Below are positions 29,404-42,388 of a stretch of DNA of 64,000 nucleotides, piece by piece. Positions within the stretch are counted from its first letter, which is position 1. The number at the start of each line of letters is the position of its first letter. Location of the stretch: contig SMNZ01000004.1 of NCBI GenBank assembly GCA_004353515.1, positions 328,360 to 392,359 on the forward strand, read 5' to 3'. A model generated the notes under the pieces. The model was not told the origin of the DNA and made no database searches. It saw only the letters and a list, made by a program, of their open reading frames with translations. This DNA is from Alteromonadaceae bacterium M269. GTDB taxonomy: Bacteria > Pseudomonadota > Gammaproteobacteria > Enterobacterales > Alteromonadaceae. The translations under genes and the position numbers were made by a program.

Positions 29404-30186
29404 ATGTCTACTCCATACCAAGCCCCCGAATCTGTATTACAAGAACATGGGATGACACAATGCAGTGCTTGTCATCAAGATGTACATGTTACAGCATCGA
29501 TGTGTCCTCATTGCGGAGTTTCCCGCAGAAGTTCACGTTATAAAAATAAAACGATTGCAGCCCTCTTCGCGTTTTTTCTAGGAGGTTTCGGCGCACATCG
29601 ATTTTACTTGGGGCAATGGTGGGGAATATTCTATCTCCTGCTGTTTTGGACAAGTATCCCTGCAATTATTGCACTCGTAGAGTTTATTTATTTCTTGGTT
29701 AAGGATCAGTATAAGTGGGATGCTCATTACAACGAGAGCATGCCTGCAGGCCCTGGCGATAAAAGCGGCGGTGCGTTAACTGTCATACTCGCTATTGTTG
29801 GTGTTATTGTATTCGTTGCTTTCATCGGAATTTTAGCAGCAATCGCACTACCTGCTTATCAACAATACACCCTAAAAGCACGAGTCGCAGGCGCTTACAA
29901 TGAAACAGTTGTTTTGCAAACAGAGATGGAAAACTACTTCCAACAAAACGGTATTTTTCCGCAATCTAATGCAGACTTACGCCAAAAATCACCGCTGTTC
30001 TTAAGTGACACCCATACCGCAAAGGTCGTTCCAGGTGGAATAGAAATCGACTTTGGACCAAGCGTTCAACAACTATCCTCCAAAACGCTAGTTATTTCCC
30101 CTCTTGTAGTCGGGGAAAACATTATTTGGAAGTGCACAGATGGGACATTGGAGAAAACACTCTACCCACCAGCTTGTTCGGACTAA
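29404..30186 (+). CDS. Membrane protein: N-terminal zinc ribbon + TM2 domain + third TM that continues as a type IV pilin-like domain with C-terminal disulfide loop
   Basis: CSACHQ…CPHCG; the TM2 signature FFLGGFGAHRFYLGQWWGIFYLL; then IGILAAIALPAYQQYTLKARV, identical in 9 consecutive residues to pilin alpha1 (IGILAAIALP); C-terminal C…C (WKCTDG…PPACSD). No G-1/E5 prepilin processing site. Confidence 0.6.
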   Translation: MSTPYQAPESVLQEHGMTQCSACHQDVHVTASMCPHCGVSRRSSRYKNKTIAALFAFFLGGFGAHRFYLGQWWGIFYLLLFWTSIPAIIALVEFIYFLVKDQYKWDAHYNESMPAGPGDKSGGALTVILAIVGVIVFVAFIGILAAIALPAYQQYTLKARVAGAYNETVVLQTEMENYFQQNGIFPQSNADLRQKSPLFLSDTHTAKVVPGGIEIDFGPSVQQLSSKTLVISPLVVGENIIWKCTDGTLEKTLYPPACSD

Positions 30187-30290: not shown

Positions 30291-30950
30291 ATGGCAAAAA
30301 TGGAAATTTTTCTTAATGAAATATACAGCTTCCCCACGGTTATCTATGCATTTCCCCTTCTCATTCTTCTTTTGTTTTGGCTAACATCCTTTGCTGGATT
30401 AGTTGATATTGAGATACTGGATTTCGACTCAGACGTCGATGCCGACGCAGATTCTGATTCAGATACTGCAAGTTCTTCTTGGCTACAAAAGCTCGGTTTA
30501 GATGGTGTGCCGTTAACGGTCGCACTCACTTTTGTCGACCTCTATGCTTTTATTCTCACCTACTTAGCCAAAAAGCATTTGTTACCGCTGCTTGATGGCA
30601 TTATCACGGGTGCTGCACTCGGTGGATTAATCGCTTTAGCTGCGTTAATTATTGCTATTCCATTAGCTGCACTTTGCATTAAGCCACTTAGGCCTGTTTT
30701 CCATACTCATGAAGCGATTAGTAAAAATGAGCTAATTGGAACACTGTGTACAGTGACCACTCAATCCGTTTCCGAAACCTTTGGTCAGGCTGAAACAGAT
30801 GACGGCATGATACTCAGTGTCAGAGCCCCCCAACCCAACGATATTCAAAAAGGCAGTCGCATTGCGCTGATTCAATTCGATAGTGACCAAGATACCTATC
30901 TTGTTGTCACCGAAACTGAACTCATGGGCCAAGCGACACCTATCAATTAA
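30291..30950 (+). CDS. yqiJ: YqiJ-like inner-membrane protein with NfeD/OB-fold C-terminal domain (flotillin partner)
   Basis: 219 aa, TM helices, acidic DxD repeats, C-terminal NfeD-like beta domain. Immediately upstream of a flotillin gene, as for E. coli yqiJK. Confidence 0.6.
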   Translation: MAKMEIFLNEIYSFPTVIYAFPLLILLLFWLTSFAGLVDIEILDFDSDVDADADSDSDTASSSWLQKLGLDGVPLTVALTFVDLYAFILTYLAKKHLLPLLDGIITGAALGGLIALAALIIAIPLAALCIKPLRPVFHTHEAISKNELIGTLCTVTTQSVSETFGQAETDDGMILSVRAPQPNDIQKGSRIALIQFDSDQDTYLVVTETELMGQATPIN

Positions 30951-30995: not shown

Positions 30996-33005
30996 ATGGA
31001 CTCAAGCCTCTTAATCTTTGTTGCTGTCGTGGCATTTGCTGCCATTTTCGGCGTTATTATTATGTTTGCCAGCCTCTACAAAAAAGTAGAGCAAGGTAAA
31101 GCCATGATAGTGAATACTATGCGCGACGAACCCAAAGTCACTTTCACTGGCTCAGTGGTTATGCCAGTTTTCCACAAAATGGAAATTATGGACATCTCAC
31201 TTAAAACCATTGAAGTGGATAGAAGCGGCACTGACGGATTGATCTGTAAAGACAACATACGCGCAGATATCAAAGTTGGTTTCTTCGTTAAGGTGAATAA
31301 AAACCGTGATGATGTGCTTAAAGTTGCTCAGGCCATTGGTTGTGAAAGGGCTTCGAATATAGATACGCTAGAAGACCTATTTAGTGCCAAGTTCTCTGAA
31401 GCTTTGAAAACCGTTGGTAAATCGCTCGACTTTGAAGATCTTTACGCTAAACGCGACAACTTTCGTGACCTTATCATCGATAATATCGGGACAGACCTAA
31501 ACGGCTATGTACTGGAAGACGTAGCTATTGATTACCTAGAACAAACGCCTATTGAGAAACTCGACCCTAACAATATCCTCGACTCTCAAGGTATTCGTAA
31601 AATCACTGAATTAACGGCTGAACAACACATCCAAACCAACATCTTTGAGCGCGAAGAAGAAATGAAAATTAAGCGTAAAGATGTTGAAACTCGCGAGGCT
31701 ATTCTTGAGTTAGAGCGCCAACAAGCCGACGCGGAAGCTAAACAGAGACGTGAAGTAGAAACTGTTGTCGCGCGTGAAGAAGCCGAGACATCAAGAGTCC
31801 AACACGAAGAAAAACTTAAAGCAGAACAAGCTCGTGTTCAGGCAGAGCAAGAAATCGAAGTTCAAGAACAAAACAAACAGCGTGAAGTGGAAGTGGCAGA
31901 AAACAATCGCTTACGTGCTGTTGCTATTGAAGAAGAGCGAGTCACCCGTGCTCGTGAGCTTGAGCAAATCGATCGAGAGAAAGAAGCTTCGCTACAGAAA
32001 ATCGCTAACGAAAAGCTTATCGAGCACGAAAAACGCGAGATTGCAGAAGTCATTCGCAGCCGTGTCGAAGTTGATAAAACCGTCGCACAGCGCGAAGAAG
32101 AAATTAACGAGCTACGTGTTGTCTCTGAAGCAGATCGTAAGAAGAAAGCACAAGTCATTGCTGCGGAAGCAGAAGCAGAAGAAGCCTTGGTTAAAGACAT
32201 CAAAGCTGCTGAAGCGGCTGAGAAATCTGCGGATTTCATAGCGAAAGAAAAAGCCATTATTGCTCAAGCTGATTTAGAAGTCGCTGAGAAGAAGGCGCAG
32301 GCACAACGCAAAGAAGCTGAAGGCATGGAAGCGTTAGAAGCTGCTAATGGTCTTGCAGAAGCTAAGGTGATGGAAGCTCAAGCTGCCGCTAAAGAGCAAG
32401 AAGGCATGGCTGAAGTCCGTGTTCAAGAAGCTAAAGCCGAAGCTATTGAGAAAACAGGTTCTGCTGAAGCTGAAGTTGCAGCCAAAATGGCTGAAGCAGA
32501 AGCCGAGGGCATGACTAAGAAGTTCGAGGCCATGGCAACCATGTCTGATCAACAACGTTCACACGAAGAGTTCAGAATGCGCTTAGACAAGCAGCATGAA
32601 CAGTCGATGGAATCTATCCGTACCAATGTTGACATCGCACAGCAACAAGCACTGGTTATGTCAGAAGCACTGAAAGAAGCCAACATTGATATTGTAGGCG
32701 GAGATACAGCATACCTAGATAGCTTTATCAAATCACTTTCTGTCGGTAAATCAATAGATGGTGCTATCGGTAAGAGCGAAACGCTCTCAACAGCCTTCAA
32801 AGATCACTTTAACGGGGATGCTAGCTTCGTTGAAGATGCTAAAGAGTTAGTCGCTGGCTTTGGTGCTGCAAGTGGTAACGCTAAAGACACAGCAATGACA
32901 GCACTTATCACCAAATTCTTACAAGAAGGTGGCAATAACCCGCAGCTCTTGGATTTACTGAGCAGCGCAGTTTCTAAAAACAATAACGACTCAAGTTCAA
33001 AGTAG
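30996..33005 (+). CDS. yqiK: Flotillin-family SPFH/band-7 protein (YqiK-like) with long Glu/Ala/Lys coiled-coil tail
   Basis: N-terminal TM + SPFH domain; then extensive EA-rich coiled coil (AEAEAEEALVKDIKAAEAAEKSA…), the flotillin hallmark. Confidence 0.85.
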   Translation: MDSSLLIFVAVVAFAAIFGVIIMFASLYKKVEQGKAMIVNTMRDEPKVTFTGSVVMPVFHKMEIMDISLKTIEVDRSGTDGLICKDNIRADIKVGFFVKVNKNRDDVLKVAQAIGCERASNIDTLEDLFSAKFSEALKTVGKSLDFEDLYAKRDNFRDLIIDNIGTDLNGYVLEDVAIDYLEQTPIEKLDPNNILDSQGIRKITELTAEQHIQTNIFEREEEMKIKRKDVETREAILELERQQADAEAKQRREVETVVAREEAETSRVQHEEKLKAEQARVQAEQEIEVQEQNKQREVEVAENNRLRAVAIEEERVTRARELEQIDREKEASLQKIANEKLIEHEKREIAEVIRSRVEVDKTVAQREEEINELRVVSEADRKKKAQVIAAEAEAEEALVKDIKAAEAAEKSADFIAKEKAIIAQADLEVAEKKAQAQRKEAEGMEALEAANGLAEAKVMEAQAAAKEQEGMAEVRVQEAKAEAIEKTGSAEAEVAAKMAEAEAEGMTKKFEAMATMSDQQRSHEEFRMRLDKQHEQSMESIRTNVDIAQQQALVMSEALKEANIDIVGGDTAYLDSFIKSLSVGKSIDGAIGKSETLSTAFKDHFNGDASFVEDAKELVAGFGAASGNAKDTAMTALITKFLQEGGNNPQLLDLLSSAVSKNNNDSSSK

Positions 33006-33162
33006 AAGGATCTTAGATACTCAATAGATTTCAAGATGCACGTAGGCGGCAATCGAGAGAACCCCCATGAGCATAGAGATACTATGTGATTGGGGTGAAC
33101 GAGTGAAGCTAACACCCGTGCAGTTTGAAAGATGAAGAGTATATTCGGAAAGCTAGGAGAAC

Positions 33163-36100
33163 ATGATGTCTACAGATCAAGAACAGGTTGATCAGGCGGT
33201 CACTGAAGGTGGTGCGTATGAGGTCATTCGTGCGCGTCTGGAAGAACAAGCCTCTCAACTAAAAGCAAAAGTCGATAGCATCAATACAGCACGTATTGAA
33301 GAGTTTGGACAAGCCAAGCTAGAAGTTATCGGCCGTGTGCGTGTGCGCACCGAAAATAACTGCATTGCACGCGATATAGTTCCCGTAGGCGATGCTATCC
33401 TTTTTGGATACAACGTCTTTATAGGCTTGAAGAAAGAAACGCAAATTAGCGACGTTTTCAGCCTTTATGCACTCACTCAAAAAGAATCAGGGTACGAACT
33501 CACACCTAAAGATTTAGCAGGAACTTTCCTCGATCAGCCTGAATTCAAAAAAGAATTCCATGAGCTATACGTTTACTACAAAGAAGCACGATTAATCCAA
33601 TTAAAAGTGCAGGGGCAGCTCCTCTTTGCCGTGTTCCAAATAGGCCGTAAGCTGGAAGATACCCGTGTATTTCAGTGGCAACTAAGTAAAGATGGCACGG
33701 CCAAATACATCGACAACCGAGGCGAACGTGCAATCAAGTCAGCACCTTCGCACGACTTTGAATGGCAATCGGTAGGTCGCGAACAGCATGTTTCGGGCAG
33801 CCATCCACATATCAACATCCTGGATGAAGTCTTTGTCGAAACTATTGGTGGCGACCTCACCATTAAGGTTGAGAACAACACCGAAGACGGTTTGGGCATC
33901 TACAACGAACCTGTTGAAGATAAGACTCAGAGTTTAGCTGATGCTGATATTCGATATGCCAAAGTTGGCACCCTAATTCTGCTGAAAATTCAGCCTTATC
34001 GCGAAAAAGACTATCGATTTTTAGTCTTCAACACGCGTACACAGCAAGTCGATAGAATTGATGCGATTGGTTTAGCCTGCGTAACACTACCTGAAGACCA
34101 TGGCATTATTTTCCCTGGCGGTTACTATTTACAAAATGGTGAGACCAAGTCTTTCCCAGACCAAATAGAAGGGTTGAAGTTTAAACGCAGTATTCGCTCC
34201 CCTAATGGTGAAGACGTTCTCTACATATTCTATGAACCTGAATCTGGTTTAAGTGGATTGTTCTCCTACAACCTTATTCGTAAAGAGCTACAAAACCCGA
34301 TTTATGCACACGGTTACAGTGTGTTTGAAGATGGCACAACCGTTGTTTTCAATGCAGAAGATGAAGCGACACGTGTGCATCCGATGCAAGTTTGGGAAAC
34401 GCCTTATTTCAGTACAGAGCATGCCGCTAAACAACCGACTAGTGACAGTTTTTACAGCCGTATCGGCAACAAAGAGTTAGTCCGTGGTATATCCGATTTA
34501 ACAGCCATTAATCGTGCTGTCCGCAACCCAAATCCAAGCCGAGTGCTTTACGAAGATTTAATCCAAACCTGTCGAAGTATGTTTGACAGATACCACTGGA
34601 TTGACGAACCTGAAGTTGATGGACTCGGTGAAGTGGTTAAACAAATCACAGCAACATCTGAGTTGGTTATCGACGAATTCGAGAAAGTTGAACAAATCAG
34701 GCAACAAGCTGACAAAGCACTTGCGGGAGCAGAAGAGAAACAACAAGAAGCGATTTCGTCCATACGTATCAGCGACTGGCAGTCTCCTGAGCAATATGTT
34801 GATTGCCTAACAAGGTTACGTCAGCAGCGCGGCCACTTAATTACACTAAAAGATCAACGTTACATCAATCGTGAGCGCATTGCTGAGCTTGATGAAGAGG
34901 TTACTCAGCGCTTTGATGAAGTCAGTTCAGCAACAGTTTCTTTCCTATCTAGTGACAAATCACTACAGCCCTACACAGACAAGATTACCACGTTAGAGAA
35001 TGCCATAGCGCAAGTCGAACTCGTGGTTGATATCAATCCAATAAATGAAGAACTCGAAACCTTATCAGTCGGTTTGGATTTATTGACTGAAATACTCAAT
35101 GGCTTGAAGGTAGAAGACGCCACAGTAAGAACAAAAATACTGGACGATATTTCTGAGATCTACGCCAAACTCAATCAGGTCAAAGCGCAAGGCAGACAGC
35201 GCAAGAAACAACTCGGCTCGGGCGAAGCCAATGCAGAATTTGCGGCACAATTCAGACTCTTCTCACAGAGCATCAATAGCGCATTGGCAATGGCTGACAC
35301 ACCAGATAAAGCTGATGAGCAATTATCGCGTTTAACCATTCAATTGGAAGAACTCGAGTCTAAATTTAGCGAGTATGATCAGTTTCTTAGCGACATTATG
35401 GATAAACGCGAAGAACTGCATAATGCTTTTGAAAGTCGCAAACAAAGCTTGTTAGAAGAGCAACAAAGACGCGCACAAAATATGTTTAGTGCTGCCGAAC
35501 GCATCATTAAAGGCATCACTCGTCGCGCTGCGACATTTAGCGATACTGACGAGCTCAATACCTACTTTGCCTCTGACCCAATGGTACTCAAAGTCTCTGA
35601 TCTCGTAGAGCAGTTGAGGGGCATTAACGACCAGATACGTGCTGACGACCTAGAAAGCCAGCTTAAAGCCGCCAAAGAGCAAGGCATCCGTAGCTTAAGA
35701 GATAAACAAGATATCTTCGAAGATGGCGGAAACGTTATCAAACTGGGTAAGCACAAATTCAGCGTTAACCAGCAGGCTCTTGATTTAACTCTATTACCCC
35801 GTGACGACGGCCTTTATCGCCATCTCGTAGGTACAGACTACTTTGAACGCATTGAAGATAATGAACTAAACGAGCTTAAGCCCTACTGGCAGCAAAATCT
35901 GATTTCTGAAAATGATGATGTTTGCCGGGCGGAATACCTCACATCTGTCATCATTAGAGATGCTGAACAGCAGCAAAATAACCTCTCGATAAGCAAACTT
36001 GCTGAGCTCCTGGACAACGAAACTGAGCTTAGTAAGTTGGTCAGGAAAACCATGTCTGACCGCTATCAGGAAGGTTACGAAAAAGGCATTCACGATGCCG

Positions 36101-38244
36101 ATACAGTTAAGCTATTAAAAGCACTGTTACCTATCCACCAAAAAGCTGACTTACTACGTTTTGCGCCTAAAGCTCGGGCTGTTGCATTGCTCTTTTGGTG
36201 CTTCGAAGCTAGAGACAAACAGCAGAAGCAGCTTTGGCAAAGCCATGCTATAAGCGCTCAGTTGCTCTCTAAAACATTCCACAGTCGCAGTGGTTTTACC
36301 GAGCTTAATGCTAACTTGTTCAACGCTATTGCGAGATTTTGCCAGCGATTTGATCTGCCGTTTGAAGAAAACGACATAGACGTCGGTGCTGAATACCTGA
36401 GCTTAGAATTAGCTAAAGAAAAGCTGGCTTTTAGCACCAGCCAACCCGCGAGAAATCTGCGCGATACTATGTCTAAGCAACTGAAAGAGCTTGGACATGA
36501 CAGAGAATTTGATGCTGCAATGTCACGCTTTGCTGAATTGATAGAACAGACGCCAACGGAATCAGAACAGGCTGCTGGTCTTAAAGAGCAATGGAGCCTA
36601 GCCAATGCTTGGTTGAACGCGTTACTCGATTCCTCTGAGGCAAGCCAAGAGTTCGAACATTATCTACCCGAAGCAGCTGCGCTAACACTATGCCAAGGTA
36701 AACTCCAAACCGAGGACAGTAGTGTCAATCTGCAAGCGGTAGTAGATGGATTACTGAGTGATCATAATCGTGTTAAAGATGGTCAACTGAACATTGCTTT
36801 AGACGAGTTTAACCAACGTTTAAGCCACTACCATTTCCATCATGTCACGCAATTCAAGCGTTACCATGACTTACGACATGAACAGATGGTGACGAGTAAA
36901 CGTGAACTTCAACTCGACGCTTATACTGCTAAGCCACTTAGCTCTTTCGTTCGTAATCGCCTCATTGACGAAGTCTACCTGCCTATTATTGGAGACAACC
37001 TCGCGAAACAGATGGGTACTGTTGGTGATGATAAACGTACCGATTTGATGGGTTTGCTATTACTTATTTCGCCACCTGGCTATGGTAAAACGACCTTGAT
37101 GGAGTATGTCGCTGATAGGCTTGGCTTAGTGTTTATGAAAATAAACTGCCCCTCGCTAGGGCATGATGTTACCTCTGTTGATCCATCCAATGCACCCAAT
37201 GCAACAGCTAAACAAGAACTTGAGAAACTCAATTTAGGTCTTGAAATGGGTAACAACGTTATGTTGTATCTGGACGATATTCAGCATACGCATCCTGAAT
37301 TCCTACAAAAGTTCATTTCACTGTGTGACGGCACAAGACGTATTGAAGGTGTCTGGAAAGGCGAAAGTAAAACCTACGACATGCGCGGTAAGAAATTCTG
37401 CATGGTCATGTCAGGAAACCCCTATACCGAATCAGGCGATGTCTTCAAAGTACCTGATATGTTGGCTAACCGTGCTGACATCTACAACCTTGGTGATGTA
37501 CTAGGTGGCAAAGAAGAACAGTTCGCCTTGAGCTATATCGAAAACTGTCTAACCTCCAATCCAGTGCTAGCGCCTTTAGCACTACGTGATATGAAGGACG
37601 TCTACAAGTTGCTAGATATGGCACAAGGTGAAAACGTTGCAACAACCGACTTAAGCCATCAGTACAGCGGTGCTGAAATCAATGAGATCACCAGCGTTCT
37701 CGGGCATCTGAGAGAAATCCAAAATGTCATCTTAAAGGTGAACTTGCAGTACATACAATCTGCGGCAACAGCTGAGGATTACCGCCAAGAGCCTCCGTTC
37801 AAACTGCAAGGCAGTTATCGAAACATGAATAAAATGGCAGAGAAGGTATCAGCTGTCATGAATCATGAAGAACTGATGCAGTTGATTGGCGATCACTACA
37901 CTGGTGAGGCACAAACACTGACGTCTGGTGCCGAAGAAAACTTGCTTAAATTAGCTATCTTACGCGGCACTATCACCGAGGAAGAGCAAGGACGTTGGGA
38001 ACACATTTGTAGTACCTACGCCAGCAAGCAAACTTTGAATGTTGAAGGCGATCCAAGCCATCAAGCTGTTCAACAGTTGAGTCATATTGCTGCCTCTTTG
38101 GAAGCCATCAAAATTGACGCTCAGCAGTCAGATACTGGTGATTTGATTAGACCGATAAATCGCGTCGCAGCTGCGATGCATTTACTCAGTAAAACTTGGG
38201 CAGGCGATCAAAAAGAATCATCAGAAGAACAAACCGATAAATAA
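33163..38244 (+). CDS. Giant (1693 aa) protein: N-terminal ~450-aa globular domain, ~550-aa coiled-coil region, C-terminal MoxR/AAA_5-like P-loop ATPase module; function unknown
   Basis: AGGAGA RBS. Walker A LISPPGYGKTTLMEY (~37060-37105), Walker B MLYLDDIQ (~37262-37285), sensor-1/arginine region VMSGNPYTESGDVFKVPDMLANRADIY resembling MoxR (ATQNP…LP.A.LDRF). No ABC signature LSGGQ. Confidence 0.8.
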   Translation: MMSTDQEQVDQAVTEGGAYEVIRARLEEQASQLKAKVDSINTARIEEFGQAKLEVIGRVRVRTENNCIARDIVPVGDAILFGYNVFIGLKKETQISDVFSLYALTQKESGYELTPKDLAGTFLDQPEFKKEFHELYVYYKEARLIQLKVQGQLLFAVFQIGRKLEDTRVFQWQLSKDGTAKYIDNRGERAIKSAPSHDFEWQSVGREQHVSGSHPHINILDEVFVETIGGDLTIKVENNTEDGLGIYNEPVEDKTQSLADADIRYAKVGTLILLKIQPYREKDYRFLVFNTRTQQVDRIDAIGLACVTLPEDHGIIFPGGYYLQNGETKSFPDQIEGLKFKRSIRSPNGEDVLYIFYEPESGLSGLFSYNLIRKELQNPIYAHGYSVFEDGTTVVFNAEDEATRVHPMQVWETPYFSTEHAAKQPTSDSFYSRIGNKELVRGISDLTAINRAVRNPNPSRVLYEDLIQTCRSMFDRYHWIDEPEVDGLGEVVKQITATSELVIDEFEKVEQIRQQADKALAGAEEKQQEAISSIRISDWQSPEQYVDCLTRLRQQRGHLITLKDQRYINRERIAELDEEVTQRFDEVSSATVSFLSSDKSLQPYTDKITTLENAIAQVELVVDINPINEELETLSVGLDLLTEILNGLKVEDATVRTKILDDISEIYAKLNQVKAQGRQRKKQLGSGEANAEFAAQFRLFSQSINSALAMADTPDKADEQLSRLTIQLEELESKFSEYDQFLSDIMDKREELHNAFESRKQSLLEEQQRRAQNMFSAAERIIKGITRRAATFSDTDELNTYFASDPMVLKVSDLVEQLRGINDQIRADDLESQLKAAKEQGIRSLRDKQDIFEDGGNVIKLGKHKFSVNQQALDLTLLPRDDGLYRHLVGTDYFERIEDNELNELKPYWQQNLISENDDVCRAEYLTSVIIRDAEQQQNNLSISKLAELLDNETELSKLVRKTMSDRYQEGYEKGIHDADTVKLLKALLPIHQKADLLRFAPKARAVALLFWCFEARDKQQKQLWQSHAISAQLLSKTFHSRSGFTELNANLFNAIARFCQRFDLPFEENDIDVGAEYLSLELAKEKLAFSTSQPARNLRDTMSKQLKELGHDREFDAAMSRFAELIEQTPTESEQAAGLKEQWSLANAWLNALLDSSEASQEFEHYLPEAAALTLCQGKLQTEDSSVNLQAVVDGLLSDHNRVKDGQLNIALDEFNQRLSHYHFHHVTQFKRYHDLRHEQMVTSKRELQLDAYTAKPLSSFVRNRLIDEVYLPIIGDNLAKQMGTVGDDKRTDLMGLLLLISPPGYGKTTLMEYVADRLGLVFMKINCPSLGHDVTSVDPSNAPNATAKQELEKLNLGLEMGNNVMLYLDDIQHTHPEFLQKFISLCDGTRRIEGVWKGESKTYDMRGKKFCMVMSGNPYTESGDVFKVPDMLANRADIYNLGDVLGGKEEQFALSYIENCLTSNPVLAPLALRDMKDVYKLLDMAQGENVATTDLSHQYSGAEINEITSVLGHLREIQNVILKVNLQYIQSAATAEDYRQEPPFKLQGSYRNMNKMAEKVSAVMNHEELMQLIGDHYTGEAQTLTSGAEENLLKLAILRGTITEEEQGRWEHICSTYASKQTLNVEGDPSHQAVQQLSHIAASLEAIKIDAQQSDTGDLIRPINRVAAAMHLLSKTWAGDQKESSEEQTDK

Positions 38245-38255
38245 AGGGTATCACT

Positions 38256-38804
38256 ATGAAATGTACAAGTTGTAAAACAGGTGACTTAGAAAGAACTTTT
38301 ATTGATGGACTATTTGAAGCCAAAACCTGCACTCATTGCGGCGGAAATTGGATCTTGGTAGAGCATTATGTTGCTTGGAAAGAAAGGAATCCGAATCATG
38401 AGTTTGATGTTGACCAAGACTTTACAATTTCAGAAACCTCTACAGCTATGCTTTGCCCAGTATCGGGTATTATTATGCGTAAACTAAAAATAGGGGATGA
38501 TAGCTCTCATCGTGTTGATTACAGTGCAGCTGTTGGAGGTGTTTGGTTAGATAGCGGTGAGTGGGAATTGCTAAAGAAGAAAGGTTTAGCGGGTTCGCTT
38601 AACAACATACTCACTGCAGTTTGGCAACGTAATATTCAATTGAATACCACACACAAAAACCTCTCAGAAGTTTATAAAAATAAGTTTGGCGACGAAAACT
38701 ATCAAAAGGTCAAAGCATTCAGGGAATGGCTGATTGAACAACCCAACAAAACTGATCTAAAAGCTTACATCAATGCTGAAGATCCTTACTCAGCTATCAA
38801 GTAG
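38256..38804 (+). CDS. zf-TFIIB-type zinc-ribbon domain protein (tandem ribbons), 11 nt downstream of the giant ATPase gene
   Basis: CTSCKTG…CTHCGGNWI and CPVSG…AAVGGVWLDSGEWELL match the PF13453-like pattern C-x2-C…C-x2-G-G-x-W-x-D-x-G-E. Confidence 0.6.
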   Translation: MKCTSCKTGDLERTFIDGLFEAKTCTHCGGNWILVEHYVAWKERNPNHEFDVDQDFTISETSTAMLCPVSGIIMRKLKIGDDSSHRVDYSAAVGGVWLDSGEWELLKKKGLAGSLNNILTAVWQRNIQLNTTHKNLSEVYKNKFGDENYQKVKAFREWLIEQPNKTDLKAYINAEDPYSAIK

Positions 38805-38932: not shown

Positions 38933-41900
38933 TCAGTACAACCAGACTCGCATTAGCGAGAATAAGCGTTCAATTTCTATCGGCTTAGAAATGTAATCGT
39001 TTGCCCCTGCTTCAATACACTTTTCCCTGTCATTTGTCATCGCTTTGGCAGTAAGCGCAATAATCGGCACATTCTTATATTGGTTGTTGTCGTCACGAAT
39101 TCGACGTATCGCTTCATATCCATCCATTTTAGGCATCATGATATCCATTAACACAATATCGATATCTGTGTTTTCCACCAGTTGTTCTAGTGCCTCTTCG
39201 CCGTTTTTCGCAACAACAACTTTCATGTTTTTACCTTCTAGTCCTGCAGAAAGTGCATAAATGTTGCGCATATCGTCATCGACCAACAACACCTTTTTAT
39301 GATTCAATATAGCTTCGACATCATGCATCTTTTGCAGAATTTGGCGCTGTTTATCAGGCAAGTTCGCTTCCATTCGATGCAAAAATAGCGCAACTTCATC
39401 CAACAGTTTTTCGGCCCCCTTCTCGCTTTTCTGAATCACGGCATGGGCATACTGGTTTAACTCAACCAGCTCATCTTTCTGAAGATCCTTAGCGGTATAG
39501 ACAATGATAGGGAGGTTATCCAACTTTTCATTTACGTGGACCAATCTCAGGAGTTTAAGGCCATCAGTATCTGGCAAGTTCAGATCTAAAACCATGCAAT
39601 CAATATCTTCACTCTCAAGATGTTTTTCAGCCTCAAAAGCAGTCTCAGCAGTGATAACTTCCATATCATGATTACCTAATAAGTCACGTATGTAATCAGA
39701 CTGAACCTCATCATCTTCCACTAACAACAACTTCTTAATAGGTTTTTCAGCTAACTGAGAGAAGCGTGTTAGTACCGAAACAATTTTTTCTTGTGAAACC
39801 GGTTTCTGTAGGAAACCAATAATCCCCTTGTCTTTTACTTCTTCGATACTACCCGTACCGCTCATCACATGAACCGGAATATGTCTTGTTGAGGAGCTAT
39901 CTTTCAAACGGGAAATAGCCGTTTGCCCACTGATGCCTGATAAGGTGAGATCGACAATAATGCCGATGGGACGAAACTCCTTGGCTAACATATAGCCTTC
40001 ACCACCATCATCTGAAATCAATATATTAAATCCATGTTCGCGCACTAAGCTTGCCACTATCATGGCGAAATTAGGGTCGTCTTCTAATAACAAAATAGTC
40101 TGCTTATCAGAAGACAAGCTGTCCCTATCATCAGGCACCACGGTTCGTGCTAAACGGTTCGACTTCTCAGATCTCGATAACGAAGTCTTAATTCGATGAG
40201 TAGGCACCAGCTTTTCGCATTTCTCAGGTAGGTATAGTGTGAATACGCTACCCTCTCCTTCAACACTCTCAAGATGAATTTCCCCGTTAAGCAAATCTGC
40301 GAGCTGCCTACATATAGACAACCCCAGCCCAGTGCCACCGTATTCTCGCTGAATTCTGGCATCTATCTGCTGAAAAGCATCAAAAATGATGTTTTGCTTT
40401 TCCTTAGGAATACCAATTCCCGTATCTCTCACCGCAAAGGCAATGACTCCATTTTCCCTTAACTCGTTACGACTAAAGTGCGTATTTTTTCCAATACGAC
40501 TGATGTGAAGAGACACACTGCCTTGTTTAATAAATTTAAACGCATTCGAGAGCAAGTTGCGCAATATCTGCTTCAATCGTTGCTCATCAGTGGTCATGGT
40601 TTCTGGCAAGGTACTATCTAATGTTATCGAGAAACCGATTCCTTTTTCTTCAGCAACGGATGCAAAGGACTTCTCCATTTCTGTTGAAATTTGAGAGAAC
40701 GAAAGAGGTTCTAGCGTAACCGTCATCTGCCCCGCTTCTACCTTCGACAGATCGAGAATATCGTTGATCAGCTTCATCAAATCATTACCAGAATGGTAAA
40801 TGATAGAAGCTGATTTCACTTGGTTATCATTAAGGTTCCCTTCTTTATTATCCAATAACATTCGAGAGAGTATGAGTAAGCTATTTAACGGAGTTCTGAG
40901 CTCATGGCTCATATTGGCAAGAAACTCAGACTTATAAGCGCTTGTCTCTTCAAGCTCTACTTGAGTTTCTTCAAGTTGCCTGTTTCGTTCTTCAACTTCT
41001 ACACTCTGACGCGCTAACTCCTCGTTGCTAACTCTGAGTTCTTCTTCGCTCTGTTTTAGCTGTTCTGTTTGATTTTGCACTTGGCTCAACAGTTCTTCAG
41101 TACGCAAAATAGATACAATGCCGTTAACAATGATGGCGCAGCTATGTAGCGTTTGCCTAAGTAAGGCGTGATGTTGCGAAGTAAAAGGAGCTAATGATGC
41201 CACCTCAATCACAGCCAAAGTTCGACCTTCAAACACAATAGGCATAATACTTACCTGAGTTGGTTTGGCGTTCCCTAGCCCTGAACCAATATTATGAATA
41301 TAGTCGCTAGGTATTTGATTTAAATAAATCGGCTGCTTGCTTTCAGCAGCCTGGCCAACTAAACCTTCACCTAATTGGGTATCTCGCTGCAATTCTTTAG
41401 CATCTGAATATCCATAAGTTCCCTGACACCTGAGAACACTCCTTTCACCCTGCTTTCTGTAAACGAAATAAAAAAGTCCTAACTGGGCATCCAGCAATGG
41501 TAAAAGACCATTTAATAACTCACGAGCAAAGTCCTCAACATCCGTTTTCGCCTGCAACTTCACTGTTAGCTGTGTAAAAGCCCTTTGAACCCAGTCTTGT
41601 TCTTCAAGCCGTTGCTTTTCGTTCTCTAGCGCTTCACGGATATCTCTCTCTGTCTTTTGTGCTTGTTTGAGCACACTCAAATCTTCAATAGCTCCAGTAA
41701 AAATTCTACGGCTCTCAAGGTTCACTTCACCGACGTGCAGCATAAGCGGAAACTCTTCACCATTTTTGCGCAAACCCGTTAGCTCCCGCCCTGCACCGAA
41801 GATACTTTTTTTTCTCGTTTCGCTATACTTTTTTAGATATTCGTCATGGTGATTTTTGTACTTTTCAGGCATCAATACTTTGATATTCTTACCCTTGACC

Positions 41901-42388
41901 TCCTCCATGTCGTAACCGAACACCCTTTCTGCGGCTTCGTTAAAGGTTTCAATGGTTCCCTCTTCAGTGACAGACACAATGACAGTATTAACAGTATCTA
42001 AAACACTTTGCAGGCGTGTTTCATTCACTGACAACCTATTCTCAGTTTTTTTCCGAAAATAGATGGCTATTGCCACGCTCCATAACGCCAGAATCGAAAG
42101 TCCGCGATTGAATTGAACAATCCAAGGTTCAGACTTTATCTCGGTGATCAGAAAATACCCTATTATGGTTAAAACAGTGGATATGACGGCAAAAACAAAA
42201 GAGGTATAAGGCCAAGGATATCTGAGTGCACTTAAAATAAATATGACATAAATAATGCCACCAGCAACGCCTAAAGGTGTGAAGAAGTCGAACACAAGGC
42301 CAACGATAAACATGATAAGAGTGGCGGCAGATGCTCTTAAGTTTGTTGGAGTAAGCCATAAAGAAAAAGAACCTTCTATACTCATCAC
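38933..42388 (-). CDS. Hybrid sensor histidine kinase: membrane sensor-PAS-GAF-HisKA-HATPase followed by three receiver domains
   Basis: 1151 aa. H-box SHELRTPLNSLLI. G-boxes (DTGIGIP; GGTGLGLSI). Three REC modules with conserved D/K (LLLEDD…DLTL; LLLVEDD…LDLNLPDTDG; VLLVDDD…MDIMMPKMDG). Confidence 0.85.
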   Translation of the reverse strand: MMSIEGSFSLWLTPTNLRASAATLIMFIVGLVFDFFTPLGVAGGIIYVIFILSALRYPWPYTSFVFAVISTVLTIIGYFLITEIKSEPWIVQFNRGLSILALWSVAIAIYFRKKTENRLSVNETRLQSVLDTVNTVIVSVTEEGTIETFNEAAERVFGYDMEEVKGKNIKVLMPEKYKNHHDEYLKKYSETRKKSIFGAGRELTGLRKNGEEFPLMLHVGEVNLESRRIFTGAIEDLSVLKQAQKTERDIREALENEKQRLEEQDWVQRAFTQLTVKLQAKTDVEDFARELLNGLLPLLDAQLGLFYFVYRKQGERSVLRCQGTYGYSDAKELQRDTQLGEGLVGQAAESKQPIYLNQIPSDYIHNIGSGLGNAKPTQVSIMPIVFEGRTLAVIEVASLAPFTSQHHALLRQTLHSCAIIVNGIVSILRTEELLSQVQNQTEQLKQSEEELRVSNEELARQSVEVEERNRQLEETQVELEETSAYKSEFLANMSHELRTPLNSLLILSRMLLDNKEGNLNDNQVKSASIIYHSGNDLMKLINDILDLSKVEAGQMTVTLEPLSFSQISTEMEKSFASVAEEKGIGFSITLDSTLPETMTTDEQRLKQILRNLLSNAFKFIKQGSVSLHISRIGKNTHFSRNELRENGVIAFAVRDTGIGIPKEKQNIIFDAFQQIDARIQREYGGTGLGLSICRQLADLLNGEIHLESVEGEGSVFTLYLPEKCEKLVPTHRIKTSLSRSEKSNRLARTVVPDDRDSLSSDKQTILLLEDDPNFAMIVASLVREHGFNILISDDGGEGYMLAKEFRPIGIIVDLTLSGISGQTAISRLKDSSSTRHIPVHVMSGTGSIEEVKDKGIIGFLQKPVSQEKIVSVLTRFSQLAEKPIKKLLLVEDDEVQSDYIRDLLGNHDMEVITAETAFEAEKHLESEDIDCMVLDLNLPDTDGLKLLRLVHVNEKLDNLPIIVYTAKDLQKDELVELNQYAHAVIQKSEKGAEKLLDEVALFLHRMEANLPDKQRQILQKMHDVEAILNHKKVLLVDDDMRNIYALSAGLEGKNMKVVVAKNGEEALEQLVENTDIDIVLMDIMMPKMDGYEAIRRIRDDNNQYKNVPIIALTAKAMTNDREKCIEAGANDYISKPIEIERLFSLMRVWLY

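Follow-up and report, generated by a model that had tools for sequence, protein, structure and literature searches.

What does a bacterial cell do with a 1693-residue protein that carries an ATPase domain in its C-terminal part? The question is raised by a locus of Alteromonadaceae bacterium M269, which we examined within a 64,000-nucleotide stretch of contig SMNZ01000004.1 (assembly GCA_004353515.1, positions 328,360 to 392,359 of the forward strand); this whole stretch is referred to here as the window, and positions are counted from its first letter. A preliminary description, made from the sequence alone, had presented the protein as an unrecognized architecture and as part of an undescribed system. 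Judged by its profile matches, the protein instead belongs over its full length to the Pfam DUF3686 + DUF7902 + AAA family, and the operon to which it belongs has appeared in the literature (PMC11237479, PMC10948618). We incline, with some caution, to the reading that it is the soluble, ATP-consuming subunit of a YqiJ/NfeD–flotillin–AAA+ membrane module and that it remodels flotillin assemblies. Its most likely role would be to supply the ATP-driven activity of a flotillin/NfeD module that answers envelope stress and serves membrane maintenance. The genes of the locus are as follows.

30291-30950, + strand: YqiJ/DUF1449-like membrane protein gene, with about three transmembrane (TM) segments and a soluble C-terminal domain; first gene of the three-gene core
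30996-33005, + strand: flotillin-like SPFH/Band-7 protein gene, with an N-terminal membrane anchor; second gene of the core, directly upstream of the ATPase gene
33155-33160, + strand: Shine-Dalgarno-like motif AGGAGA
33163-38244, + strand: giant AAA+ ATPase gene of the DUF3686/DUF7902 family, an open reading frame (ORF) of 1693 codons with its likely true start at 33166
38256-38804, + strand: zinc-ribbon protein gene, 182 residues, encoding an intact TFIIB-type ribbon and a degenerate second one

The ATPase and zinc-ribbon ORFs were found as first described, and so were the 11 nucleotides, exactly, that separate the TAA stop codon of the former from the ATG of the latter, both Walker motifs and the sensor block. 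The AGGAGA motif is likewise present, but it is better spaced for a second ATG at 33166 (5 nucleotides) than for the ATG at 33163 (2 nucleotides). The NCBI record of an identical protein from Alteromonadaceae bacterium M269 (P0001) begins at the second ATG and has 1692 residues, and ATG 33166 is the more likely start of the ATPase. An artifactual fusion of separate genes by a frameshift, which the preliminary description had allowed for, does not explain the ORF, because full-length collinear homologues of 1590–1930 residues occur in many genomes. The observation itself is therefore confirmed, and its interpretation is supported in part: the anatomy was right, whereas the boundaries drawn around the gene set, the claim of novelty, and the suggested function were not. 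No TM segments are predicted in the ATPase, which is predicted to be soluble and cytosolic, with both upstream partners predicted to be membrane proteins.

The domain structure places the protein in its family. A Pfam scan matches DUF3686 (PF12458) to residues 33–478 with an E value of 7.9e-203, over profile positions 2–448 of 448, and DUF7902 (PF25472) to residues 600–683 with an E value of 1.1e-27; weak AAA and AAA_5 matches fall within residues 1299–1422. The two named regions outside the ATPase domain are these.

33259-34596, + strand: DUF3686 region (residues 33–478), consisting of an N-terminal helix, a divergent beta-propeller-like domain, and then a helical bundle
34960-35211, + strand: DUF7902 (residues 600–683), inside a middle arm with helix-favoring composition

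The three-part layout proposed earlier, with a globular N-terminal region, a heptad-rich middle, and a C-terminal P-loop module, is broadly right, but the N-terminal part proves to be the propeller-like DUF3686 region and the middle is less regular than supposed. An AlphaFold2 (AF2) model of the N-terminal part (predicted local distance difference test score, pLDDT, 87) is beta-propeller-like and flanked by helices, and about 27 strands fall between residues 54 and 412. The middle part (about residues 420–1250) has a composition that favors helices; a rough scan found clean heptads over only about 150 residues, and DUF7902 and a second conserved block, GGNVIKLGKHKFSVN (residues 855–869), do not follow the heptad pattern. 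From this composition and the rough scan, residues 500–1225 are probably helical.

The family is large and ancient, and it is under strong purifying selection. A word-indexed protein search returned 6,667 homologues at E <= 1e-5, of which the best 120 are all full length, and family homologues cover 95–100% of the query at 55–78% identity; the first 500 residues, used as query in an exhaustive search, returned 737 cluster representatives at 50% identity. Members occur in Gammaproteobacteria, a Myxococcales assembly, an Actinomycetota assembly, and a distant Vibrio, as well as in Streptomyces, Nonomuraea, Deinococcus, Hymenobacter, and Proteus, so that the family spans at least five bacterial phyla. 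Across gammaproteobacterial orders, identity stays at 50–57%. By every test of membership that we applied, the window protein belongs to the DUF3686/DUF7902 AAA+ family.

A lead on function comes from the two genes upstream. We sampled the gene neighborhood in 80 loci, one genome per species, searching with the proteins that neighbor the ATPase in the window; loci with enough upstream DNA to be informative numbered 74 for the flotillin-like gene and 71 for the YqiJ-like gene. In 73 of these 74, the gene immediately upstream of the ATPase gene is the flotillin-like one, and a YqiJ-like homologue lies two genes upstream in 70 of these 71. The same YqiJ–flotillin–ATPase triad is found in the Actinomycetota assembly, the distant Vibrio, Hymenobacter (Bacteroidota), Deinococcus (Deinococcota), and the Myxococcales assembly (L079). 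These two upstream genes, and not the zinc-ribbon gene that the preliminary description had named as the partner, are the near-universal companions of the ATPase.

The window itself shows the SPFH–NfeD gene pair, in which a membrane-anchored SPFH protein is encoded beside an NfeD/YqiJ-type protein. The YqiJ-like protein has three hydrophobic segments by TM prediction and matches Pfam YqiJ_N weakly, short of the cutoff (E 5e-4); its Hymenobacter counterpart is annotated as DUF1449. The flotillin-like protein has an N-terminal TM segment (residues 1–31) and weak Flot and FloT matches. Over its entire length it shares 43% identity (E 5e-167) with an Actinomycetota protein for which a Band_7 match is on record. 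Band_7 is recorded for the Actinomycetota and Vibrio orthologues, and 4 of 32 members of the flotillin-like family match it individually. Single-sequence and profile searches with the flotillin-like protein found no matches among PDB sequences.

This neighborhood bears on the name under which the family is filed. Pfam describes DUF3686 as an 'ATPase involved in DNA repair', and 'DNA repair ATPase' is the NCBI product name of most of the best 120 homologues. That the protein is a DNA repair ATPase is suggested by this inherited label and by nothing else that we found: no DNA-binding or nuclease domain and no SMC/Rad50 signature was detected in it, every conserved neighbor is a membrane or membrane-stress protein, and a literature search for DUF3686 found no mention of it. 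The label is misleading, with no evidence behind it, and of all the readings considered here a role in DNA repair is the one to which we give the least credence.

The module can be pictured as follows. MoxR-like AAA+ domains would form a ring, and the long arms with their N-terminal beta-propellers would bind the cytoplasmic scaffold of flotillin or the C-terminal domain of YqiJ. ATP turnover would then assemble, remodel, or release flotillin assemblies (and PspA, where it is present) at sites of damage or stress in the inner membrane. As for the zinc-ribbon protein, it could be an adaptor or a regulator that the module can do without. The module is larger in many other bacteria, with a CesT/Tir-like chaperone (YjfI/DUF2170) and PspA/IM30 encoded upstream and a rhomboid, a PLD/HKD enzyme, and a zinc-ribbon protein encoded downstream. 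Physical interaction between the proteins, the ring, and the identity of the substrate are what we infer from the arrangement of genes and domains.

The features of the ATPase domain are these.

37057-37428, + strand: AAA+ core, the span of the Pfam AAA_5 match (residues 1299–1422)
37069-37095, + strand: Walker A motif SPPGYGKTT (residues 1303–1311), invariant in 68 sequences
37264-37284, + strand: Walker B motif LYLDDIQ (residues 1368–1374), with Asp-Asp where most AAA+ proteins read Asp-Glu
37336-37395, + strand: predicted beta-hairpin between alpha3 and beta4, in the pre-sensor-1 position (about residues 1393–1406; pLDDT about 72–83)
37411-37485, + strand: sensor-1 and candidate arginine-finger block SGNPYTESGDVFKVPDMLANRADIY (residues 1417–1441)

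The AAA+ core is the best-conserved part of the protein, with 83–93% column identity to the reference. In the set of 68 sequences, the Walker A lysine, the Walker B Asp-Asp pair, the sensor-1 asparagine (N1419), and the candidate arginine finger (R1437) are all invariant, as are the remaining Walker B residues Y, I, and Q, with L1368 and L1370 varying; in an alignment of 11 sequences, N1419, R1437, and all seven Walker B positions are invariant. At 28.1 bits the AAA_5 match clears its cutoff of 22, and the general Pfam AAA match is confined to 48 residues around the P-loop. An AF2 model of residues 1225–1693, of moderate quality (mean pLDDT 69, predicted template modeling score 0.42), has an AAA+ alpha/beta core followed by an all-helical C-terminal region, and its beta2–alpha2 segment lacks a resolved helix-2 insert. 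In a Foldseek search with this model, the MoxR-type proteins NorQ and CbbQ came out on top with low TM-scores (structural similarity scores), followed by Skd3, MCM, and RuvB. The likeness to MoxR/AAA_5 proteins that was noted in the preliminary description is thus borne out weakly. Among PDB sequences, neither the full-length protein nor a profile built from 68 sequences of the C-terminal part matched anything outside the P-loop, where the alignments span about 33 residues.

MoxR proteins are maturation chaperones, and SPFH cages are known to enclose AAA+ clients, FtsH in HflK/C being an example. The AAA_5 match and the structural ranking of NorQ and CbbQ could accordingly be read in another way, with the ATPase as a maturation chaperone of the MoxR type whose client, a membrane protein or complex in a flotillin microdomain, it inserts, matures, or extracts, leaving the scaffold itself as it is. 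Against this, no locus yielded a partner with the VWA domain typical of MoxR systems or, beyond the facultative rhomboid and PLD genes, a conserved candidate for the client. We consider this reading improbable.

The genes that accompany the core in other genomes raise a further alternative. ORF clustering over the loci found YjfI (DUF2170) and PspA_IM30 genes upstream in 48 of 80, a rhomboid gene downstream in 32 of 80, a PLD/HKD enzyme gene in 23 of 80, and a small gene of 79–110 residues in some. With PspA so often at hand, the ATPase might act mainly on PspA/IM30, a relative of ESCRT-III, disassembling and recycling its polymers in the manner of Vps4, and flotillin would be only the platform. 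The presence of PspA and YjfI in the same cluster in those 48 loci and in Hymenobacter speaks for this reading, as does the proposal of Ravi et al. (mSystems 2024, PMC11237479) of ATP-dependent remodeling analogous to Snf7/Vps4. Yet the ATPase is kept with flotillin and YqiJ in loci that have no PspA, the window with its 64 kb among them. Its short AAA match is a further point against a Vps4-like enzyme, and neither an MIT domain nor another Pfam family was detected in its N-terminal part. Recycling of PspA is therefore an unlikely main function, and we prefer flotillin and YqiJ over PspA as the direct partners because in the loci sampled the ATPase stays with them, with one exception, and often does so without PspA.

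Homologues of PspA, YjfI, rhomboid, and PLD proteins of these subfamilies are absent from the entire 64-kb window, which therefore contains an abbreviated three-gene operon plus the zinc-ribbon gene.

Several points weigh against the reading of the ATPase as a remodeler of flotillin assemblies. Its association with flotillin or YqiJ is drawn from gene linkage, and one locus with ample upstream DNA, that of a Methyloprofundus sp. (L025), has neither a flotillin-like nor a YqiJ-like neighbor. The Band_7 and YqiJ matches of the window proteins themselves lie below threshold, and it is on the evidence of its family that the partner is probably an SPFH protein. Assignment to an AAA+ clade and formation of a ring are not secure, because the model is moderate and sequence profiles reach solved AAA+ structures only through the P-loop. 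The Asp-Asp form of the Walker B motif could mean slow or switch-like hydrolysis. Finally, no experiment that addresses the ATPase itself, in any organism, was found in the literature searched; in this respect the preliminary description was right to call the function open, as no biochemical function is established for the family.

A stronger version of the same idea would make the family a dedicated ATP-driven machine for assembly and disassembly of bacterial flotillin (SPFH) scaffolds, with the propeller arms gripping the scaffold and the zinc-ribbon protein acting as a lineage-specific adaptor. We offer this version tentatively, as a possibility that we would sooner doubt than assume. If it were true, an SPFH scaffold would for the first time be known to have a regulator that depends on energy, and the family would stand to flotillin as Vps4 stands to ESCRT-III.

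The preliminary description had also brought up a role against phages, on the ground that large coiled-coil NTPases with small partners are typical of anti-phage and membrane-remodeling machines. In a system of this kind, directed against phages or acting by abortive infection, sensing would fall to the coiled-coil NTPase, and either the small partner or the PLD enzyme would act as effector. The HKD/PLD enzyme and the rhomboid encoded at some loci can indeed be read as effectors, and PA3728–PA3732 of Pseudomonas aeruginosa, the genes for the ATPase and its neighbors, are upregulated upon phage infection (PMC12041424), although such induction is as expected of an envelope-stress response. The window locus, however, has no effector. 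A search of PADLOC-DB 2.0 gave no significant match for the ATPase (the best was IetA, E 0.0018, over 29 P-loop residues) and no matches for four neighboring proteins. No copy of the ATPase was found among 50,697 phage records, and the 13 copies among 72,556 plasmid records lie mostly on megaplasmids or on mislabeled chromosomes. A common upstream flanking gene, seen by direct check in six Pseudomonas-group loci and in further loci of the gene-order table, does not fit an island-like distribution, and neither does the identity maintained across gammaproteobacterial orders fit a defense gene. We regard a role in defense as very unlikely. The alternatives to remodeling of flotillin are all less likely than that reading itself, in descending order from the recycling of PspA through the MoxR-type chaperone and the anti-phage system to the DNA repair ATPase.

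The zinc-ribbon protein had been described as carrying tandem zf-TFIIB ribbons. One of these is an intact CxxC...CxxC ribbon with four cysteines (C3, C6, C25, and C28), but the second copy is degenerate, retaining a single cysteine (C67), and it matches Zn_ribbon_TFIIB at a lenient threshold only. The gene occurs in 22 of the 80 loci in variable positions, usually 1–2 kb downstream of the ATPase gene and after the rhomboid or PLD genes. At some loci it lies upstream of the ATPase gene, in part on the opposite strand, and in Colwellia it and the operon are divergently transcribed. Homologues with 55–65% identity are found in unrelated contexts, away from the ATPase, in Photobacterium and Shewanella, and the closest relative of the window locus (L001, with an ATPase that is 92% identical) has no zinc-ribbon gene beside the ATPase gene. 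The zinc-ribbon gene is thus a recurrent but facultative neighbor and not a defining partner of the ATPase.

The same close relative, L001, also lacks the gene for a 1151-residue PAS-GAF hybrid histidine kinase with three receiver domains that follows in the window (38933-42388, − strand). Its ATPase gene is followed by a 527-residue ORF on the opposite strand, which agrees in size and strand with the ORF beyond the kinase gene in the window. The comparison suggests that the zinc-ribbon and kinase genes were inserted or deleted between the two genomes, with the 527-residue ORFs compared by size and strand only. In Photobacterium sp. J15 (L082/L083, 10895-15175), a zinc-ribbon homologue is followed after 345 nucleotides by a gene for a 1426-residue protein with no recorded Pfam match, and no DUF3686 gene lies near it; this protein could be an unrelated or a highly divergent large partner.

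Other small differences between loci concern the space around the core genes. In the window, the flotillin-like and ATPase genes are separated by 157 non-coding nucleotides (33006-33162). A conserved gene of 79–107 residues with faint TerB/DUF533-like similarity (cluster c7, with homologues in 23 loci) lies between the flotillin-like and ATPase genes in L046, L047, L057, L058, L063–L065, and L070, and before the YqiJ-like gene in L023 and L034; a different small gene of about 110 residues (c23) precedes the YqiJ-like gene in six loci. A 900-residue protein with helicase-like P-loop motifs (GPPGTGKS and DEATQ; c20, with homologues in six loci) is encoded after the PLD gene in L046, L048, L058, and L065, all of the Pseudomonas group. 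In the Actinomycetota metagenome-assembled genome (L085), the flotillin-like partner is 43% identical to that of the window, but the N-terminal domains of the ATPases are only about 36% identical; horizontal transfer of the module and unusually strong constraint on the flotillin-like protein are both possible explanations.

Upstream of the core, the window encodes a 260-residue protein (29404-30186, + strand) whose N-terminal zinc ribbon (DZR) and C-terminal pilin-like domain (Pfam Pilin, E 1.6e-7) are accompanied by a TM2 domain. This gene, 104 nucleotides upstream of the YqiJ-like gene, was considered as a member of the operon and rejected, being a singleton among 81 loci. A scan for sigma-54 sites (TGGCAC-N5-TTGCW) found fewer matches than in shuffled controls, with the region upstream of the operon free of them, and scans for sigma-70 promoters and terminators performed no better than on shuffled sequences. 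The only Rfam match in the window is a class A RNase P RNA (RF00010, 327.7 bits) at 1482-1842 on the − strand, far from the locus.

To our knowledge, bacteria are without Vps4, and an energy source for flotillin and PspA assemblies is missing from the present picture. The near-absolute linkage of the ATPase to flotillin and NfeD-type genes offers a concrete lead on an old question, the control and dynamics of bacterial flotillin and PspA assemblies. The window adds little beyond one more family member; it shows the operon with no adjacent PspA gene and the zinc-ribbon gene as a recurrent optional neighbor. What the analysis adds to earlier knowledge is modest and consists of the linkage counts, the rhomboid and the double zinc-ribbon as accessory genes, and the Asp-Asp Walker B motif.

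Two published operons can be compared with the locus. Ravi et al. described an operon of CesT/Tir–PspA with three more genes, one of them for a three-TM YqiJ/YuaF-type protein, and with a PLD(HKD) hydrolase as an occasional member; abbreviated operons limited to flotillin and the YqiJ/YuaF protein, in some cases joined by the ATPase, were reported to be more widely distributed (PMC11237479). The ATPase of that operon and that of the window agree in Pfam domains, length class, order of parts, and flotillin-like and YqiJ-like partners, and the N-terminal beta-propeller repeats that mark the family of Ravi et al. and of BacE are present in the window protein. The core of the published operon is that of the window, and the three-gene abbreviated form mentioned there is the form that the window has. 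The adjacency of CesT/Tir or YjfI to PspA/IM30, which is the mark of the full PspA-type operon, is absent from the window. Conversely, zinc-ribbon and rhomboid genes do not appear in the published description, whereas the window has a zinc-ribbon gene directly after the ATPase gene.

In P. aeruginosa PA14, the bac cluster (PA3732–PA3729) has been extended by reverse transcription PCR to a co-transcribed bacABCDEF; in a bacA mutant the levels of BacB–F, PA14_16190 among them, rise 6- to 13-fold, and a sigma-54 site has been proposed upstream of bacA (PMC10948618). Co-transcription, co-regulation, and stress induction of the P. aeruginosa operon are thus taken from the literature. In the sister species P. 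paraeruginosa (L068), the gene order is YjfI–PspA–YqiJ–flotillin–ATPase–PLD, which by position makes BacE (PA14_16190; PA3728 in PAO1) the ATPase and BacF the PLD enzyme. The P. paraeruginosa ATPase is about 52% identical to that of the window over its full length. Compared with bacABCDEF, the window has no equivalents of bacA (YjfI), bacB (PspA), or bacF (PLD) and no sigma-54-like site near the operon. PA3728 has been listed among the genes recurrently mutated in cystic fibrosis isolates (PMC8190622); a literature search for PA3729, PA3731, and related tags found incidental mentions in tables only. In Bacillus subtilis, recruitment of PspA to the membrane depends on the SPFH protein YdjI (PMC8581546; cited in PMC10936438).

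Among known ATPases, the MoxR-type proteins (NorQ, CbbQ, and RavA; AAA_5) provide the structures nearest to the AAA+ domain of the window protein, which passes the AAA_5 threshold. Its NPxxxxG...P..L.NR block resembles what we take to be the sensor-1 region of MoxR proteins. MoxR proteins, however, have about 250–500 residues and VWA partners, whereas the window protein has about 1,290 additional N-terminal residues and an Asp-Asp Walker B motif. No VWA/MIDAS-domain partner was found among the scanned window genes or the conserved accessory clusters scanned with Pfam, and sequence profiles of the C-terminal part fail to reach the MoxR structures.

The difference from SMC, Rad50, and RecN is clearer, and here the preliminary description judged correctly. 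Those proteins have an N-terminal Walker A motif, a C-terminal Walker B motif with LSGGQ, and an antiparallel coiled coil in between; the window ATPase has both Walker motifs in one C-terminal domain, and no LSGGQ or LSGG-like signature was found in it. Classical AAA proteins such as Vps4 and p97 would be expected to give a full AAA match, and Vps4 an MIT domain as well, in contrast to the 48-residue match seen here. FtsH, a membrane protease, and Vps4, a classical-clade AAA protein with an MIT domain, both differ from the window protein in having no propeller–arm–AAA_5 layout. What HflK/C–FtsH and Vps4/ESCRT-III offer is an analogy at the level of the system, in that each genetically couples an oligomeric membrane scaffold to an AAA+ machine, as we propose for the YqiJ–flotillin–ATPase module.

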